Assembly (NCBI GenBank): GCA_037131105.1
Contig: JBAXRQ010000001.1
Coordinates: forward strand, 194,039-258,038
Direction of reading: 5' to 3'
DNA from: a bacterium
GTDB taxonomy: Bacteria; Patescibacteriota; UBA1384; CAILIB01
Length of the DNA: 64,000 nucleotides
The position numbers and the translations under genes are program-made. This document shows, piece after piece, positions 53,312 to 59,135 of this stretch (its first letter is position 1; each line of letters begins with the position of its first letter). The notes beneath the pieces are model-generated. The model saw nothing but the letters and a program-made list of their open reading frames with translations. It did not search any database and was not told the DNA's origin.

Positions 53312-54121
53312 CTAGGATTTTTCTAGTTCCTCTGCCAGCTCTTTCACGATCCGCTTATCCGTCTCCGCCTTATCCCAGTCAACGGTTCCTGAAGTGTTTT
53401 GGTTGAATTGGATACCGTTCTCACAGCTCCAGGAGATCCTATTTAGTAGGGCGTATACCGTCACTATTTTTCTTTGCTCTGGACTGAGAACTTCGGCGTC
53501 CATAACGGCGTTGGTGTAGGCCTCTCCGTGACGGGTGCCATACCAACTGGCCTTGATGCGTCCGATGGTCTCCAACGGGTCGCCTTGGGCCAGAGCATCG
53601 AGGTCCACTAGTCCGCTGAACTCTCCCTCATGGACCATTACGTTTTTGCTGGACATGTCGTCGAAGTAGGTGGTTGCCTCCACATGGTTGAAGTAGTCGC
53701 GGTAGCGGTCGAAGACTTCATTAAGAAGCGATTCGAGATCGCCGTCCATTACTCCTGTCTGAAGGCCTCGCTCCTTGGCATTGTTGACCAGTTCCTCCAT
53801 GCAATCTGTCCAAGACTCGAGTAGCTTGCTGTCGTCTCCTAGCTTGTCGCCGAACCTCCCGTTGTTGGGTATCTCTCGGAGCTGTTTGAATATATGGGAG
53901 ATCTCACGGGCGATGGCTGTCAGCTCATCGTCACTAAGCGTATCAATGACGTTGGTGATGTCGGTGCCGGGAAGTTTGGAAAGCACCTGGTAGGCATAGG
54001 GAACGAGCTGGCGGGAGTAGTCCTCGCTCAGGATGCCGTCATCGCTGCAAGTTACTGAATGGCGGCTACCTGCCTCGAAGTCATTGCCGCCCGGGGAATA
54101 CCGTTGGAAAGTGAATGTCAT
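53312..54121 (-). CDS. phosphotransferase (APH/choline-kinase-like) family protein, catalytic motif degenerate
   Basis: Segment NVMVHEGEFSGLVDLDALAQGDPLETIG resembles the APH Brenner/DFG region but lacks the canonical HGD. Confidence 0.35.
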   Translation of the reverse strand: MTFTFQRYSPGGNDFEAGSRHSVTCSDDGILSEDYSRQLVPYAYQVLSKLPGTDITNVIDTLSDDELTAIAREISHIFKQLREIPNNGRFGDKLGDDSKLLESWTDCMEELVNNAKERGLQTGVMDGDLESLLNEVFDRYRDYFNHVEATTYFDDMSSKNVMVHEGEFSGLVDLDALAQGDPLETIGRIKASWYGTRHGEAYTNAVMDAEVLSPEQRKIVTVYALLNRISWSCENGIQFNQNTSGTVDWDKAETDKRIVKELAEELEKS

Positions 54122-54881
54122 AGGCCGTGGGGAGAGTGCTTGGACCGGCGCGTATTTCCGTGTCGCGCAGCCTACGGAGGCCAGAGAAGCAGCTGAAGCT
54201 GAGCGACGCTTCGCGGGCGACGATGAAGCTTTAGTTGCGGTCTACCTCAAGCATGGGCTACTCATAGATACCTATCCGGCGCTCAAGCGCCTCTACGAGC
54301 GGACCGACGATCCCCAGCGCAAACAGCGACTTCAGTATTACCTGCAGGCCGCCGGCCTTCTGAATTGCGCGACCTGCGGATTCCGAGTGACCGCCGAAAA
54401 GTCGAAGGGCCATATCTACTACCATTGCAACAATCGCACTGGAACCTGTACCAAGCGGGGCATCCGTGAGGAAGTTCTGGAGGGGCGGATCGACGCTTTG
54501 TTGGAGGACATTACCGTGTATCCCGAATATGAGCGGCTCGCTTTGGAGATTCTCGATGACATGCGACAGGAGGCATTGAGTAGCCGCCAGGCCATCTTTG
54601 AGTCGCGGCAGCAGGCTTTGGCCGATCTGAAGCGTCAGAAGGACGCCTTGCTGGGTATTTTCCTACAGGGTCACATTACTGACGACGAGTTCGCTGCCAA
54701 GAAGACTGAACTTGTGAAGCTGGACGGAGCAGTCAACCTCAAGGGCGAAGATTCGGAGGAAGAACTGAACGGGGTCTGGCAGACCGCCGCCAGCGCCGTG
54801 AGCTTCATGGCGCAGACAAGGATCCAGTTCCACACGGGGGGATGTGGCCAGCAAGCGCTATGTGGCGGCACACTTGGGTGA
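54120..54881 (+). pseudogene. 5'-truncated remnant of a large serine recombinase (zinc-ribbon + coiled-coil C-terminal part only)
   Basis: CATCGFRVTAEKSKGHIYYHCNNRTGTCTKRG zinc ribbon and downstream coiled coil are paralogous to the C-terminus of the 21490-23061 recombinase; the catalytic resolvase domain is absent. Confidence 0.5.
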
Positions 54882-55192: not shown

Positions 55193-55340
55193 AATGAAAA
55201 ATAGATAATCTGTTCGGTACATTGTCGGCTGCTAGATTGACAAAGAGGCTAAAATATGGTACCCTTGGCGCGATCTATTGAGATCCTTACACCTGATTGG
55301 CGCTTGGCGTCAAAATCAAACAGGTGTCTGCAAGGAAAAC

Positions 55341-56315
55341 ATGAACGAACTGATGACACAAGGCCAGCTCGATGAAGTCGGCCGCCTCTTCGCCCAACCG
55401 TTTGTCGATCACGGCATCACCGTGGACGACTACCAAATCGTCCGCCAGGACCCCGCCTTCAAGGCGCTCCTGCAAGGACCGGGCGAATACGTCCGGAAAT
55501 TCATCGTCCGCCGTGATTCGGTATCTTCCTATCTCTTCGTCGATGCCCTCCCAGAGAGCGGCTACACGAAGGCGAACACTACGCTCACCTACGACTGGTC
55601 GAAGCGTGGCAGTGAGGACGACCGGCTCGGCAATATCGCCAAGGCAGTGAAAGCTGCATTCGGCATCAACGATGTTGTCCTTACCAATTCGGTGGTTGCA
55701 ATGCCGGCCTGGCAGACCTGCCTCGTGGTTTCTCCGGTTGATCTTCTGCTCCAGATGGGTCTTGACCCTGCGAGCGTGAAGAATACGGACTACTGCAAGC
55801 TGGTCGCCAGCCTGATGAACCAGTTGGCTGGCGTCAAGCCTACCGACTACGTCAATACGTGCCTGGCAACCGAAGCCGCCCGCCTCGAAGCGGAAACGCT
55901 CAAAGCATGGCTTGCCGTTCCGACTACCCAGGAGAAAGGGCAGCCGCTCATCGTCCGCCGCATGGCCGTTAATCCGGCAATCTGGCTTGACCATGAAGGC
56001 ACCGCCTATTCTTTCGCCCCCTTGCACACTCCAGCCCTGTTCGCCAACCTTCCGGTTTCGAACAAGGTGAAGAAAGTGCTCCCGGGTGACATGGTCGTCG
56101 CAGCGAGCCTCCTCATCGGAGAGCCTCACTTGGTTGACCAGATCAAGGCTGGAGCCTGCCCACGTATCGATGTTCCGGGAACGGAATTGCGCGACGACGG
56201 GTCGTGGTCTGGCCGCCCGTGCGTGGACAGGGACGGCTCAGAGGCGTGGATCGACTTCTACTTTGCCGTCGCTGCCGTTGACTTCTTCGGTTCGCTCGGC
56301 TGCGCCTGGGAGTAA
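55341..56315 (+). CDS. DGR target protein with C-terminal C-type-lectin/FGE-like variable domain
   Basis: C-terminal LRDDGSWSGRPCVDR...FGSLGCAWE follows the RGGSWNN...GFRCA CLec-VR pattern; contains the VR; ATG at 55341 has an AAGGA RBS (the longer ORF from 55278 lacks an RBS). Confidence 0.75.
   Translation: MNELMTQGQLDEVGRLFAQPFVDHGITVDDYQIVRQDPAFKALLQGPGEYVRKFIVRRDSVSSYLFVDALPESGYTKANTTLTYDWSKRGSEDDRLGNIAKAVKAAFGINDVVLTNSVVAMPAWQTCLVVSPVDLLLQMGLDPASVKNTDYCKLVASLMNQLAGVKPTDYVNTCLATEAARLEAETLKAWLAVPTTQEKGQPLIVRRMAVNPAIWLDHEGTAYSFAPLHTPALFANLPVSNKVKKVLPGDMVVAASLLIGEPHLVDQIKAGACPRIDVPGTELRDDGSWSGRPCVDRDGSEAWIDFYFAVAAVDFFGSLGCAWE
56187..56311 (+). repeat. DGR variable repeat (VR)
   Basis: 125 bp colinear with TR; 17 mismatches, all at TR adenines. 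Confidence 0.85.
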
Positions 56316-56368
56316 CTGGGCATTTGAATTTCGGCACTTTGGTCTTCTTGACCATTTGCCATTTGACT

Positions 56369-56403
56369 CACGGTATCTGCTTGCAGATACCGTGTTTTAT
56401 TTT
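56369..56403 (+). terminator. hairpin + T-run downstream of VR (target-gene terminator and/or DGR homing-associated hairpin)
   Basis: cacggtatctgc tt gcagataccgtg followed by ttttatttt. Confidence 0.55.
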
Positions 56404-56538
56404 CGTCAGAAAATAAATAACTGGTTTGCTGCTGCGAGGGGGAGTGTGGTATCTTCTGAGTTGAAATGGGGAATGGGAATGCTCGAGCCCTATTTTTAAA
56501 TTTCCAAAACTGGCTAGAATAAGGAGGAAATTAGGTTC

Positions 56539-56772
56539 ATGAACGGCCGTTCACGGATTGCCGTCACCGAAATCACGCTTCTGCCACCGGTAGAGTTGGG
56601 AGCATCTACGGATCTCCCAAGCGTCCAGGCAGCAAGGGTACTCCGTGCCTTGTCCAAGATGGGGAAGACCCGCATGAAATACAGGGATTGTTATTTTCTA
56701 ACACCCGGTGACTTGGATAGGATGAGGCACTTTTGCGCAACGACGGGTCGTGGTCTAACCGCCCGAACGTGA
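56539..56772 (+). CDS. small DGR-associated ORF with strong Shine-Dalgarno, 3' end overlapping the TR
   Basis: AAGGAGG 10 nt upstream of the ATG; 77 aa; function unknown. Confidence 0.35.
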   Translation: MNGRSRIAVTEITLLPPVELGASTDLPSVQAARVLRALSKMGKTRMKYRDCYFLTPGDLDRMRHFCATTGRGLTART

Positions 56773-56857
56773 ACAGGGACGACTCAGAGGCGTGGATCGA
56801 CAACAACTTTGCCGACAATGCCAATGACAACTTCGGTTCGCTCGGCTGCGCCTGGGA
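56733..56857 (+). repeat. DGR template repeat (TR)
   Basis: Nine AAY codons in the VR reading frame; the identical 3' ~40 bp is shared with VR (IMH-like region). Confidence 0.85.
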
Positions 56858-56862
56858 CTGCC

Positions 56863-57183
56863 CTAGCTGAGACTACGTATCCACCCTCCTAGCATCTTTC
56901 CAATTTCTTGGAGGAAGCTCTGGAGGGTGAGGTACTTTTTATCGTCTACGCACTTGGTCTCAAGGGCGAGTCGCACCAACATTTTTAACACATCGAGCTT
57001 GGCGCTGAGCGCCACGAGGGCATTCCTCTTCAGGCTGTTCGGTAGCTGGTTTGCGTGGAGCAACCCTTCAAGCAGTTCCAGCGCCGCATCCTCAAGCCGA
57101 GCTCCTAGCGAAAATCGCTCAACCTTCGGAAATAAATGGATCCATACATGCAGCTGGCAGTAGAAATTAAAAGTTTTCCCCAC
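56863..57183 (-). CDS. avd: Avd-like accessory variability determinant (four-helix-bundle protein)
   Basis: About 106 aa; ERFSLGARLEDAALELLEGL...IGKMLGGWIRS resembles the Bordetella-phage Avd / 23S-rRNA-IVS four-helix family; annotated start is GTG. Confidence 0.65.
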   Translation of the reverse strand: MGKTFNFYCQLHVWIHLFPKVERFSLGARLEDAALELLEGLLHANQLPNSLKRNALVALSAKLDVLKMLVRLALETKCVDDKKYLTLQSFLQEIGKMLGGWIRSLS

Positions 57184-57184
57184 G

Positions 57185-58237
57185 ATGGGGAGGGAACTGG
57201 GCGATTCTCGGGGGGGGAGTTATGGGCATAGTTATCCACAGATAAAGTTTGGCGACATCGTTTCGCTGGAAAACCTGGTAAAGGCCTGGTACGAGTTCCG
57301 CAACGGCAAGCGGTCTAAGCGGGACGTCCAGGAGTTTGAGTTCACCCTTGAGGATAGCATATTTGAACTCGCTGAGGAACTAAAAAACGGCTCCTACAAG
57401 CCACAAAGGTATCACCAGTTCCGCATCAACGACCCCAAGCCGCGCCTCATCAGCAAGGCTGCCGTCCGGGATAGGCTAGTGCACCACGCCATCTATCGCA
57501 TCTTGTACCCCCACTTTGATACCAGCTTCATCTTCGACTCGTACTCATGCCGGGTGAACAAGGGTACCCACAAGGCCTTTGACCGTCTGCAGGATATGAT
57601 TGGGGTGGTAAGCCGGAATTACACGAAGCCCTGCTTCGCCCTGAAGATGGACATCCGCCGCTTCTTCGACAGCATCGACCACGGCATCCTGCTAGAACTA
57701 CTCAAGTACCGCATAGAAGATGAAAAAGTTATTAACTTGCTCCACGAAATCATCGAGAGCTTTGAGGTGAAGCCGGGCAAGGGCATGCCGATAGGCAACC
57801 TCACCTCTCAGCTCTTCGCCAACGTCTATATGGACCCGCTGGACAAGTTCGTGAAGCACAAGCTTAAGGCGAGGTACTACCTGCGCTATGCCGATGACTT
57901 CCTTATCCTGGCCAGTTCCGAGTCGGAGCTGATGGGATGCTTCGTTGAAATAAACGTGTTTCTTAAAGAAACATTAAAACTTGAGCTGCACCCGAACAAG
58001 ATCTCGTTACGGAAATTAAGCTGGGGAATCGACTTCGTCGGCTACGTCGCCCGCCCGCACTATTCCGTTCCCAGGAACGGCACCGCCAAGCGGATGCTGC
58101 GGAATATTGGCAAAGTCGCCGATCCGGAGAAGGTACCGGCCACGCTTGATTCCTATCTGGGATACTTAAGCCATGTCAGCGCCAGGAAAATCGAGGACGA
58201 GCTGCGGCAGAAGGCGGCAGATATTTTGGGGCACTAA
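57185..58237 (+). CDS. DGR reverse transcriptase
   Basis: RT motifs 1-7, including DIRRFFDSIDH, RYADDF, and the DGR-diagnostic IGNLTSQLFANVYM (SQ instead of the group-II SP); 350 aa. Confidence 0.85.
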   Translation: MGRELGDSRGGSYGHSYPQIKFGDIVSLENLVKAWYEFRNGKRSKRDVQEFEFTLEDSIFELAEELKNGSYKPQRYHQFRINDPKPRLISKAAVRDRLVHHAIYRILYPHFDTSFIFDSYSCRVNKGTHKAFDRLQDMIGVVSRNYTKPCFALKMDIRRFFDSIDHGILLELLKYRIEDEKVINLLHEIIESFEVKPGKGMPIGNLTSQLFANVYMDPLDKFVKHKLKARYYLRYADDFLILASSESELMGCFVEINVFLKETLKLELHPNKISLRKLSWGIDFVGYVARPHYSVPRNGTAKRMLRNIGKVADPEKVPATLDSYLGYLSHVSARKIEDELRQKAADILGH

Positions 58238-58876: not shown

Positions 58877-58915
58877 CCAGAAAAATAGACACCCAGTGGG
58901 TGTCTATTTTTCTGG
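58877..58915. terminator. 18-bp perfect hairpin ccagaaaaatagacaccc agt gggtgtctatttttctgg abutting the tRNA-Lys 3' end
   Basis: Direct reading; right arm ends in the encoded CCA of tRNA-Lys. Confidence 0.6.
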
Positions 58916-58987
58916 TGGGTCCGGTGGGAATCGAACCCACAACCAATGGCTTAAGAGGCCACTGCTCTACCGTTGAGCTACAGACCC
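58913..58987 (-). tRNA. tRNA-Lys (anticodon CTT)
   Basis: Hand-folded: acceptor GGGTCTG/CGGACCC, D-arm GCTCAACGGTAGAGC, anticodon loop CTCTTAA, T-arm GTGGGTTCGATTCCCAC, CCA encoded. Confidence 0.8.
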
Positions 58988-59135
58988 TCGAGTGAGGAGA
59001 ATGGAAACGTGCTTGCACGGGGACATTCGACGAACGACACGGTCAGGACGAAGTACAGACCCTCGAGTGAGGCAAGCGCAGACCTGCTTGCAGGGATGCA
59101 TTTGCCGAGCGACTGGGTCAGCACGAGCAGCGTAG
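58977..59135. repeat. degenerate ~80-bp tandem duplication starting inside the tRNA-Lys 5' end
   Basis: tacagaccctcgagtgagg occurs at 58978 and 59057; the following ~55 nt are ~65% similar (tgcttgcaNggga core). Confidence 0.5.

Follow-up and report, generated by a model that had tools for sequence, protein, structure and literature searches.

A probable complete DGR of the CPR type in a Patescibacteriota chromosome, with a covarying leader upstream of its TR

A contig from a bacterium of the Patescibacteriota (JBAXRQ010000001.1, assembly GCA_037131105.1) harbors, within the 64,000-nt stretch analysed here (hereafter the window), two 125-nt repeats that lie close to a reverse transcriptase (RT) gene and differ from each other at adenines of one copy. 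This raises the question of whether the locus is a complete diversity-generating retroelement (DGR), a reverse-transcriptase system by which the tip of one protein is rewritten at template adenines, and which elements around the two repeats may take part in the transfer of sequence from the donor repeat (TR) to the recipient repeat (VR). The genes follow each other in the order target-VR (forward), TR (forward), avd (reverse) and RT (forward); the succession of TR, reverse-strand avd and RT corresponds to the definition of Architecture B3 and is shared by 27 of 27 relatives for which upstream DNA is available. The best explanation is a complete, chromosomal CPR-type DGR with a mechanism proposed by analogy with that of the Bordetella phage BPP-1, to which we assign a probability of roughly 0.9. 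Beyond the genes and repeats, the locus presents a structured leader immediately upstream of the TR and an A-poor tract immediately downstream of the VR.

The repeat pair and its target

The VR (56187-56311) and the TR (56733-56857), both on the forward strand, align over 125 nt without any gap and with 17 mismatches (86% identity by pairwise alignment), and the edges of homology are sharp on the left (56187/56733) as well as on the right (56311/56857). As the first-pass annotation had claimed, every mismatch falls on one of the 29 TR adenines and none on any other TR base, a distribution whose hypergeometric probability is 1.3e-13. The VR base opposite the altered adenine is G in eight cases, T in eight and C in one, while 12 TR adenines are unaltered in the VR. 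The VR starts in frame with the target gene, and in this frame the changed adenines occupy first (9) and second (8) codon positions exclusively. The TR contains nine AAY codons, and the 11 diversified codons of the VR encode D, G, C, D, G, F, Y, V, A, V and F, both in exact agreement with what had been noted. No A-containing codon of the TR can be turned into a stop codon by mutation at A, and the theoretical repertoire of the TR amounts to ~10^15.9 peptides. The proposed signature of adenine-specific mutagenic retrohoming is further supported by the presence of an RT and of Avd, by the C-terminal location of the VR, and by ~17 relatives in which the layout recurs with A-biased VR/TR pairs of their own.

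Both repeats end with the same GC-rich 3' tail (56285-56311, and 56831-56857 for the TR copy, forward strand), which is free of A save for its final base. The identical end had been estimated at about 40 bp; it extends 27 nt past the last mismatch, and the string that had been quoted for it is 23 nt long. Since the tail lacks A except at its last base, its identity is uninformative on whether mutagenesis ends there. We keep its description as an IMH-like 3' boundary, suggested by the GC-rich, A-free composition, as tentative: VR and TR do not diverge before homology stops, which makes IMH and IMH* indistinguishable inside the repeat, and the GC hairpin is found 58 nt further downstream rather than adjacent. 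Identical IMH and IMH* have been reported in other cases, and an inverted repeat rich in GC occurs in only 34% of DGRs (Wu et al. 2018, PMC5758913). A search of the 64-kb window with the 23-nt tail, allowing up to three mismatches, returned the VR and TR copies only (none elsewhere, with none expected by chance); this search, limited to the tail, revealed no second VR.

The target gene (55341-56315, forward strand, from an ATG at 55341 to a stop codon at 56313-56315) codes for a protein of 324 amino acids, of which the VR encodes the last 42 codons, i.e. the extreme C-terminus. An alternative TTG start is present at 55278, and the gene is annotated as "hypothetical" in the MAG. The protein belongs to a small orphan family (16 clusters) for which profile searches gave no match in Pfam, NCBIfam or PDB, and a second profile search with the family gained no further sequences; the targets of CPR DGRs are typically devoid of known domains (Roux et al. 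2021, PMC8144416). In the alignment of homologues, the variability of the family is focused at the VR positions. The C-terminal part that carries the VR is modelled as C-type-lectin-like, and this domain is probably of that type, for which the solved DGR variable proteins of C-type lectin fold TvpA (2y3c), Mtd (1yu0) and TaqVP (5vf4) offer a comparison.

Whether the element still operates is a separate matter. The earlier statement that it has been active holds for the past only, and present-day activity is not borne out, the VR being identical across public assemblies. Exact-protein look-ups retrieved three further assemblies, four in all, in which the locus is base-for-base identical, including the VR. 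A search of the JGI metagenome collection with a degenerate VR pattern (the TR with every A replaced by N) gave no matches, and neither did a protein-pattern scan for VR variants with the target family. The sameness of the locus and of the VR in the four assemblies would suit an element that diversified its VR in the past and is now silent or fixed, the A-pattern being a fossil, and decay is indeed seen in relatives: in one of them (L002) avd and the RT have been lost, and what is left is the target with its tract, the leader's 5' half and the remnant of a TR that shows mismatches at non-A positions, while in another (L001) a target homologue stands without any DGR in its vicinity. We nevertheless consider such a relic unlikely, although deserving of attention, since the pair has not accumulated a single non-A mismatch in 125 nt, the avd and RT open reading frames are intact with their catalytic motifs kept, and the leader scores among the top matches of its covariance model. 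Moreover, the identical assemblies may derive from related samples, and minor variants would be hidden by consensus sequences.

The leader upstream of the TR and the elements downstream of each repeat

The region between the target and the TR contains a structured non-coding leader of ~200 nt (56531-56732, forward strand). Its covariance model, R1, matches 23 loci, with a single match in each, always on the RT strand and always abutting the TR, and the leader of the window, at 156 bits, is one of the best matches. The model places five helices on the forward strand: H0 (56534-36/56566-68), H1 (56543-51/56556-64), H3 (56596-606/56611-20), H5 (56680-87/56703-10) and the 11-bp H6 (56645-55/56720-30), which encloses the 3' domain and stops 2 nt short of the TR. 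The leader helices covary across 22 loci, with compensatory changes, in which both sides are altered, in 31 of the 39 pairs; 91.8% of the pair cells are paired, versus 62% in shuffles and ~40% when the partners are slid. Recovery of this structure required a curated subset and the covariance model, as RNAalifold on the raw MAFFT alignment of 17 sequences gave one hairpin only. No Rfam 15 family matches the leader at gathering score in the window and 18 related loci, and hits with E up to 10 are at chance level only. A -10-like hexamer, TAGAAT (56515-56520, forward strand), recognised as a consensus match only, lies 11 nt upstream of the leader and may be the promoter of the template RNA; 13 of 22 loci carry a TAnnnT hexamer at -13 to -17 relative to the first position of the model.

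The same region contains an open frame of 77 codons (56539-56772, forward strand) that overlaps the leader and the start of the TR and could be taken for a small accessory protein rather than a structured RNA. In the window, its ATG follows a good Shine-Dalgarno sequence, AAGGAGG, at a distance of 10 nt, and its peptide is partly shared by L002. However, the AAGGAGG is confined to the window, a stop-free frame of any kind exists in just 2 of 22 leaders, the compensatory changes described above affect most helix pairs, and the peptide has no family match. Coding by this region is thus very improbable, and the open reading frame is probably not a gene.

With regard to the wider meaning of the structured leader, a broader proposal can be advanced tentatively, as a possibility that we rate somewhat below even. 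The leader may represent an undescribed class of structured RNA, integral to all B3-type DGRs, both those of CPR and those of relatives in Chlamydiae, Verrucomicrobia and Bacteroidota. It would replace the functions of the downstream spacer and of the avd 3' end of BPP-1, dock the RT-Avd complex and set the cDNA stop through H6, while the tract that follows the VR, and has no counterpart after the TR, would mark the recipient. No prior description of the leader or of the post-VR tract was found in the DGR literature searched, which did not include Paul et al. 2017. The leader, H6 beside the TR and the tract provide testable candidates for the assembly of B3 ribonucleoproteins and for the cDNA stop, as well as for the discrimination of recipient (VR) and donor (TR) in spite of their identity up to the end of homology. 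In addition, searching fragmentary CPR assemblies with the leader's covariance model could be a sensitive way to locate TRs.

The A-poor tract (56316-56368, forward strand) directly follows the VR and the stop codon and consists of about six units of 7-9 nt (TTTGR / TTCGG / CTTGA). A CCTTGG-like A-poor tract after the VR is present clade-wide: in a leave-one-out comparison over 17 loci, the motif 5-mers number 4.7 versus 0.53 in 104 control 3' regions (P 2.5e-12), and the A content is 11% versus 27%. The copy of the window stands at the weak end of the tract scores, and its motif score within the window is at the 99.9th percentile without being unique. Together with the terminator hairpin that follows (56316-56404), the tract is 79% identical to the corresponding region of L002, versus 64% for the CDS. 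It is missing after the TR, and may serve to mark the recipient site. Two other interpretations of the tract were set aside. Tandem Repeats Finder reports no tandem repeat there, the support for the tract being its positional conservation across loci, and RNA-guided targeting through complementarity to, or repetition in, the flanks of the template RNA gave a mean z of ~0 over 17 loci.

Each repeat is followed by a hairpin. The one that follows the VR at a distance of 58 nt (56369-56404, forward strand; 11 bp at 56369-56394, then a T-run) is terminator-like and would end the target transcript; equivalents are present in 13 of 17 loci, roughly 10-70 nt after the VR and mostly at 40-70 nt. Downstream of the TR, single-sequence folds predict a long hairpin (56877-56935, -31 kcal/mol) with a UUUC tetraloop on its inner stem, followed by TTTTTAT (the whole at 56877-56942, forward strand). 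This hairpin is antisense to the avd codons ...YLTLQSFLQEIGKMLGGWI and may form the 3' element of the template RNA as well as its terminator. An equivalent is present in L019, L007 and L008; in 11 other relatives, the interval from the TR to the avd stop contains a GC hairpin and T-run instead.

Avd, the reverse transcriptase and the CPR layout

The gene for the accessory variability determinant, avd (56863-57183, reverse strand, 106 aa), matches the Pfam family bAvd (PF22296, E 3e-17) and passes the cutoff of the DGR-Avd equivalog model DivGenRetAVD (NCBIfam NF033474, 80.8 bits for a cutoff of 80). A gap of 5 nt separates its stop codon from the end of the TR, and a gap of 1 nt separates its start codon from that of the RT, the two being back to back; its strand and position are unchanged in all 27 relatives with upstream DNA. 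The DGR reverse transcriptase (57185-58237, forward strand, 350 aa; RVT_1, E 6e-24) carries PIGNLTSQLFANVY, in agreement with the DGR motif-4 signature [ILV]GxxxSQ, in addition to a YxDD box. Among PDB entries, the best relative of the RT is 8ub7 (E 9e-45, residues 24-327 aligned), which we take to be the bRT of the Bordetella phage, consistent with the motifs common to the two proteins, PIG(N/S)LTSQLFANVY and the YADD/YMDD box (YADD in the RT of the window). An ordinary diverged duplication or gene-conversion tract beside an unrelated RT (group II intron, retron or defence RT), for which the top NCBIfam model (group_II_RT_mat, 148 bits) and weak Drt and retron matches could be invoked, is effectively refuted, because these and the other RT family models score far under their cutoffs (for example 148 versus 300), chance would hardly produce the A-only pattern, Avd is present, Rfam detects no intron or retron RNA, and the TR/VR-avd-RT module is repeated in ~17 relatives.

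The closest relatives of the RT (55-75% identity) are exclusively found in MAGs of Patescibacteria, including Saccharibacteria, Berkelbacteria and Nealsonbacteria, and remoter ones in Chlamydiae, Verrucomicrobia and Bacteroidota; a search for viral relatives was negative. Architecture B3, "TR-(avd)-RT", accounts for 90% of CPR DGRs (Wu et al. 2018, PMC5758913). CPR-restricted, cellular DGRs form the "clade 2" described by Roux et al. 2021 (PMC8144416), to which the RT of the window may belong. The element of the window shares with these the gene order, the reversed avd, the C-terminal VR, the chromosomal, non-phage context and the domainless target, with no essential difference. As a DGR it is therefore ordinary, a further member of a layout already known to typify the ultra-small CPR bacteria. 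It provides one more intact example of the dominant CPR architecture with a rare orphan target, which is helpful for annotation and unsurprising. The inverted avd was likewise considered as a possible novelty and rejected, this layout being already part of the definition of Architecture B3 (Wu et al. 2018, PMC5758913).

Proposed mechanism and comparison with BPP-1

By analogy with BPP-1, a scheme can be proposed; where the transcript starts and stops, where copying is primed and what H6 and the tract do are inferences in it. A discrete non-coding RNA of ~415 nt would be transcribed from its own promoter near 56528 and would comprise the leader, the TR, and the 3' hairpin with its U-run, ending near 56942. 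The structured flanks of this RNA would be bound by the RT-Avd complex, reverse transcription would be primed at the TR's 3' end, and the copy would be faithful except at adenines, where any base may go in. Synthesis would halt at H6, in a position analogous to that of the "cPRT Stop" duplex of BPP-1. The cDNA would then replace the VR. As the two repeats show no difference before the point where homology stops, the 3' limit of replacement is assigned to the GC-rich A-free tail plus the sequence downstream of the VR, possibly the A-poor tract. In this way, the ligand-binding face of a domain that is probably C-type-lectin-like could take as many as ~10^16 forms.

Several features are common to this locus and to BPP-1 (mtd-avd-TR-brt), namely the adenine-specific transfer from TR to VR, the presence of Avd, the RT motifs, the C-terminal location of the VR in a domain with a lectin-like fold, which is probable for the locus of the window, and the GC-rich end of the repeats. 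The two differ in the RNA that surrounds the TR, for which structures of the BPP-1 bRT-Avd-RNA complex are available (Handa et al., bioRxiv 10.1101/2023.10.23.563531). Directly 5' of the TR, the RNA consists of a structured leader of 200 nt here and of the last 20 nt of avd in BPP-1, and the duplex at the 5' end of the TR is formed here by H6 from upstream sequence only, whereas the "cPRT Stop" of BPP-1 pairs with downstream sequence. The flanking-RNA arrangement of BPP-1 is not usable by B3-type DGRs, given that their avd is inverted and lies right beside the TR. Conserved structured RNAs beside the DGR template and RT have been described as motifs RT-1 to RT-19, among which RT-10 is located between the TR and brt of BPP-1 (Weinberg et al. 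2017, PMC5737381), and the leader resembles these motifs in being conserved, structured and adjacent to template and RT, yet it matches none of the Rfam models, among which these motifs are included. The distance between the VR and the GC hairpin also differs, being about 4 nt in BPP-1 compared with 58 nt here. Finally, the host context is phage for BPP-1 and cellular for the locus of the window, whose neighbours are housekeeping genes and tRNAs.

Repeat pair and genes of the retroelement

The variable repeat (VR, 56187-56311) and the template repeat (TR, 56733-56857) align without gaps over 125 nt with 86% identity. All 17 mismatches fall on a TR adenine, read in the VR as G (8), T (8) or C (1); with 29 adenines in the 125 nt of the TR, the hypergeometric probability of this distribution is 1.3e-13. 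This confirms the first-pass annotation, which had reported a gapless pair differing solely by G, T or C at template adenines, and which had named a mismatch at a non-adenine TR position as evidence to the contrary: none occurs in the aligned 125 nt. The target ORF runs from an ATG at 55341 to a stop codon at 56313-56315 and enters the VR in frame. The TR contains nine AAY codons in this frame and the 11 altered VR codons read D,G,C,D,G,F,Y,V,A,V,F, both as annotated earlier. The changed adenines are found exclusively at codon positions 1 (9) or 2 (8), no stop codon can be reached from any A-containing TR codon, and the theoretical repertoire of the TR is around 10^15.9 peptides. The identical 3' tail, previously put at ~40 bp, measures 27 nt (56285-56311). 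Its sole A is the last base, so that its identity is uninformative on how far mutagenesis extends. When the 64-kb window was searched with a 23-nt stretch of this tail, these two copies alone were returned, with no sign of a second VR. The contig of locus L038 (ENA ERZ27299960) stops exactly at the TR end (window 56857-56858), its last bases switching to VR-flank sequence, an assembly break due to the VR/TR repeat.

The avd gene (56863-57183, minus strand, 106 aa) lies 5 nt past the TR end, and its product matches Pfam bAvd (E 3e-17) and exceeds the NCBI DGR-Avd equivalog cutoff (80.8 vs 80 bits). The reverse transcriptase (RT) gene (57185-58237, plus strand, 350 aa; RVT_1 E 6e-24) begins 1 nt beyond the avd start codon. 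The closest solved relative of the RT is 8ub7 (E 9e-45, residues 24-327), with which it has in common the motif-4 signature of diversity-generating retroelements (DGRs; PIGNLTSQLFANVY vs PIGSLTSQLFANVY) and the YADD/YMDD box. We take 8ub7-8ube to be the Bordetella phage bRT-Avd-RNA structures, the molecule name in the database being just "Reverse transcriptase". Models of group II intron, retron and defence RTs all scored far under their cutoffs against this protein. The two start codons stand back to back, 1 nt apart (57181-57187), and nearly so clade-wide, so the promoter and ribosome-binding site of each gene must sit within the other. A run of eight G is present at 57210-57217, within the first 21 RT codons, which are not conserved, and the Logan contig L037 breaks precisely there with one extra G; this could be a slippage-prone site or a mere sequencing or assembly problem.

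Thirty-three relatives of the RT were found among GTDB species genomes, the closest (55-75% identity) in MAGs of Saccharibacteria, Berkelbacteria, Nealsonbacteria and other Patescibacteria, the remoter ones (40-49%) in Chlamydiae, Verrucomicrobia and Bacteroidota; no close relative was found on viral contigs. In every one of the 27 loci for which DNA upstream of the RT was available, avd directly precedes the RT and is encoded on the other strand. Around 17 loci possess an A-biased VR/TR pair of their own, arranged as VR(+), 250-420 nt, TR(+), avd(-), RT(+). The layout is therefore a clade trait. It corresponds to architecture B3, TR-(avd)-RT, which was defined by Wu et al. 2018 and represents 90% of their CPR set (PMC5758913), and Roux et al. 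2021 described a cellular DGR clade confined to CPR, in which targets typically have no recognisable domains (PMC8144416). These data support the first-pass interpretation: the element is a CPR-type, B3-architecture DGR of an already known kind. The loci L024-L029 and L033 (Chlamydiae, Verrucomicrobia, Bacteroidota) harbor the same core of leader, TR, reversed avd and RT as CPR, with AAY-rich TRs directly after the leader here too. Their VR candidates, matching at 81-94% of non-A positions, lie on the opposite strand, so the core module travels independently of target orientation.

The neighbouring genes are cellular (pyruvate kinase, phosphotransferase, glyoxalase, nucleoside diphosphate kinase, tRNA-Glu and tRNA-Lys). 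Close to the DGR on its upstream side, an ORF (54033-54881) encodes only the zinc ribbon and coiled coil of a large serine recombinase, without the catalytic domain, and may be a mobile-element remnant. A tandem 73-nt direct repeat (58979-59051 and 59054-59126, 77% identity) starts inside the 5' end of tRNA-Lys (58913-58987, minus strand). Minus-strand tRNA genes are also present downstream of the RT in the related locus L007.

Leader and putative 3' end of the template RNA

Two features go beyond the accessible published descriptions, a covarying leader of the TR and a conserved tract after the VR. The ~200 nt that precede the TR are conserved clade-wide, with visibly covarying flanks. Between the window and the decayed relative L002 (1-2410, ENA ERZ27280294), the upstream non-coding DNA is 81% identical, whereas the target coding sequence is just 64% identical. 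In the window the leader (56531-56732, plus strand) abuts the TR and contains five covarying helices, of which H6 (11 bp, 56645-55 with 56720-30) closes the 3' domain, leaving 2 nt between itself and the TR. A covariance model (R1; 218 positions, 39 pairs), built from a 12-sequence MAFFT alignment and a five-helix RNAalifold structure, was searched over both strands of 303 kb. It gave one full-length match per locus in 23 loci, all on the RT strand and all ending at the TR. The leader occupies the equivalent position in L004-L029 and L033. The window scored 156 bits (56531-56737); matches beyond the seed include the related loci L020 (105 bits) and L008 (59) as well as L002 (55), and loci of Bacteroidota, Verrucomicrobia and Chlamydiae outside the seed scored 29-52 bits. 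Standard pairs occupy 91.8% of pair cells; the proportion drops to 62% when columns are shuffled and to 38-47% when pairing partners are shifted by 1-3 columns. The same controls lower the covariation score from 0.56 to 0.17 and about 0.09-0.10, respectively. Both-sided changes occur at 31 of the 39 pairs in the model-guided alignment, which favours structure by construction; the structure-blind MAFFT alignment already had most pairs. The leader is well supported as an RNA structure with an inferred function.

The Rfam scan of the window returned five tRNAs and nothing else, and neither the window's leader nor those of 18 related loci match an Rfam 15 family. A 77-aa ORF overlapping the leader is not conserved: a stop-free frame of any kind exists in only 2 of 22 leaders, and the Shine-Dalgarno sequence of the ORF was found in the window alone. 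In 13 of 22 loci, a TAnnnT hexamer resembling a -10 box precedes the R1 model start by 13-17 nt (TAGAAT at 56515-56520, plus strand, in the window).

On the other side of the TR, a long hairpin with an inner tetraloop stem (56877-56935, plus strand, -31 kcal/mol) is followed by TTTTTAT. Hairpin and U-run (56877-56942) are antisense to the C-terminal codons of avd, as in the closest relatives; in 11 other relatives, a GC hairpin with a T-run instead occupies the interval separating the TR from the avd stop. Either arrangement points to a discrete template RNA that terminates shortly past the TR, and in the window a single DNA stretch (56877-56942) may serve both Avd coding and the RNA 3' end. 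The BPP-1 phage DGR requires 20 nt before and 140 nt after its TR, its "cPRT Stop" is a duplex between the two TR flanks, and its downstream stem-loop binds Avd; for other DGRs, the same study surveyed just the 40 nt preceding and the 100 nt following the TR (Handa et al., bioRxiv 10.1101/2023.10.23.563531). H6 could be the positional analogue of this stop duplex, which joins both TR flanks in BPP-1, whereas both strands of H6 are upstream of the TR.

The tract following the variable repeat

Since VR and TR are identical to the end of their homology, something downstream must tell recipient from donor. Between the target stop codon and a terminator-like hairpin (56369-56394) with T-run lies an A-poor tract of about six 7-9-nt TTTGR/TTCGG/CTTGA units (56316-56368). 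Over 17 loci, CCCTT, CCTTG and CTTGG are enriched 12-21-fold in the 60 nt that follow the target stop codon. In a leave-one-out comparison, these regions have 4.7 motif 5-mers, whereas 104 control 3' regions drawn from the same loci have 0.53 (Mann-Whitney P 2.5e-12); their A content is 11% vs 27% in controls. Conservation after the VR is supported statistically at the clade level, the window's own copy being at the weak end of scores and not unique within the window. A CCTTGG/TTTGR-like tract is absent after the TR, and no complementarity of the tract to the flanks of the template RNA was found. The tract is a candidate discriminator between recipient and donor.

Past activity and the target family

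The lack of non-A mismatches and the intact avd, RT and motifs all argue for a functional element. The locus is base-for-base identical, VR included, in three further public assemblies (ENA ERZ27300165, ENA ERZ27299960 and Logan SRR7053528), and a degenerate VR pattern search and a protein-level scan found no further VR variants. The adenine-specific mutagenic retrohoming proposed in the first-pass annotation is consequently borne out as past activity only.

At NCBI the exact target protein, encoded on a MAG contig of 949 kb, carries the name "hypothetical protein [bacterium]". It has no match by sequence or profile in Pfam, NCBIfam or PDB, no significant Foldseek match, and none for its N-terminal ~190 residues. 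The family is small: a word-indexed search gave 7 proteins, and an exhaustive HMMER search of 1.84 billion cluster representatives gave 16. Its variability gathers at AAY positions in the C-terminal 40 residues, past a conserved GTCPRxDxPGT motif. A divergent lectin-like VR domain is supported but not proven.

L002 retains a homologue of the target, 51% identical at the amino-acid level, along with the post-VR tract, the terminator and the 5' half of the leader, which a deletion has joined to a TR remnant with non-A mismatches; avd and RT are missing, and a thermonuclease-like gene comes next. In L001 (985-1815, Logan SRR22388049), a target homologue is flanked by genes for an amino-acid kinase and arginyl-tRNA synthetase. 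The 3.7-kb contig contains neither TR nor avd nor RT, so the target family can exist without an adjacent DGR. Both loci illustrate DGR decay in relatives.
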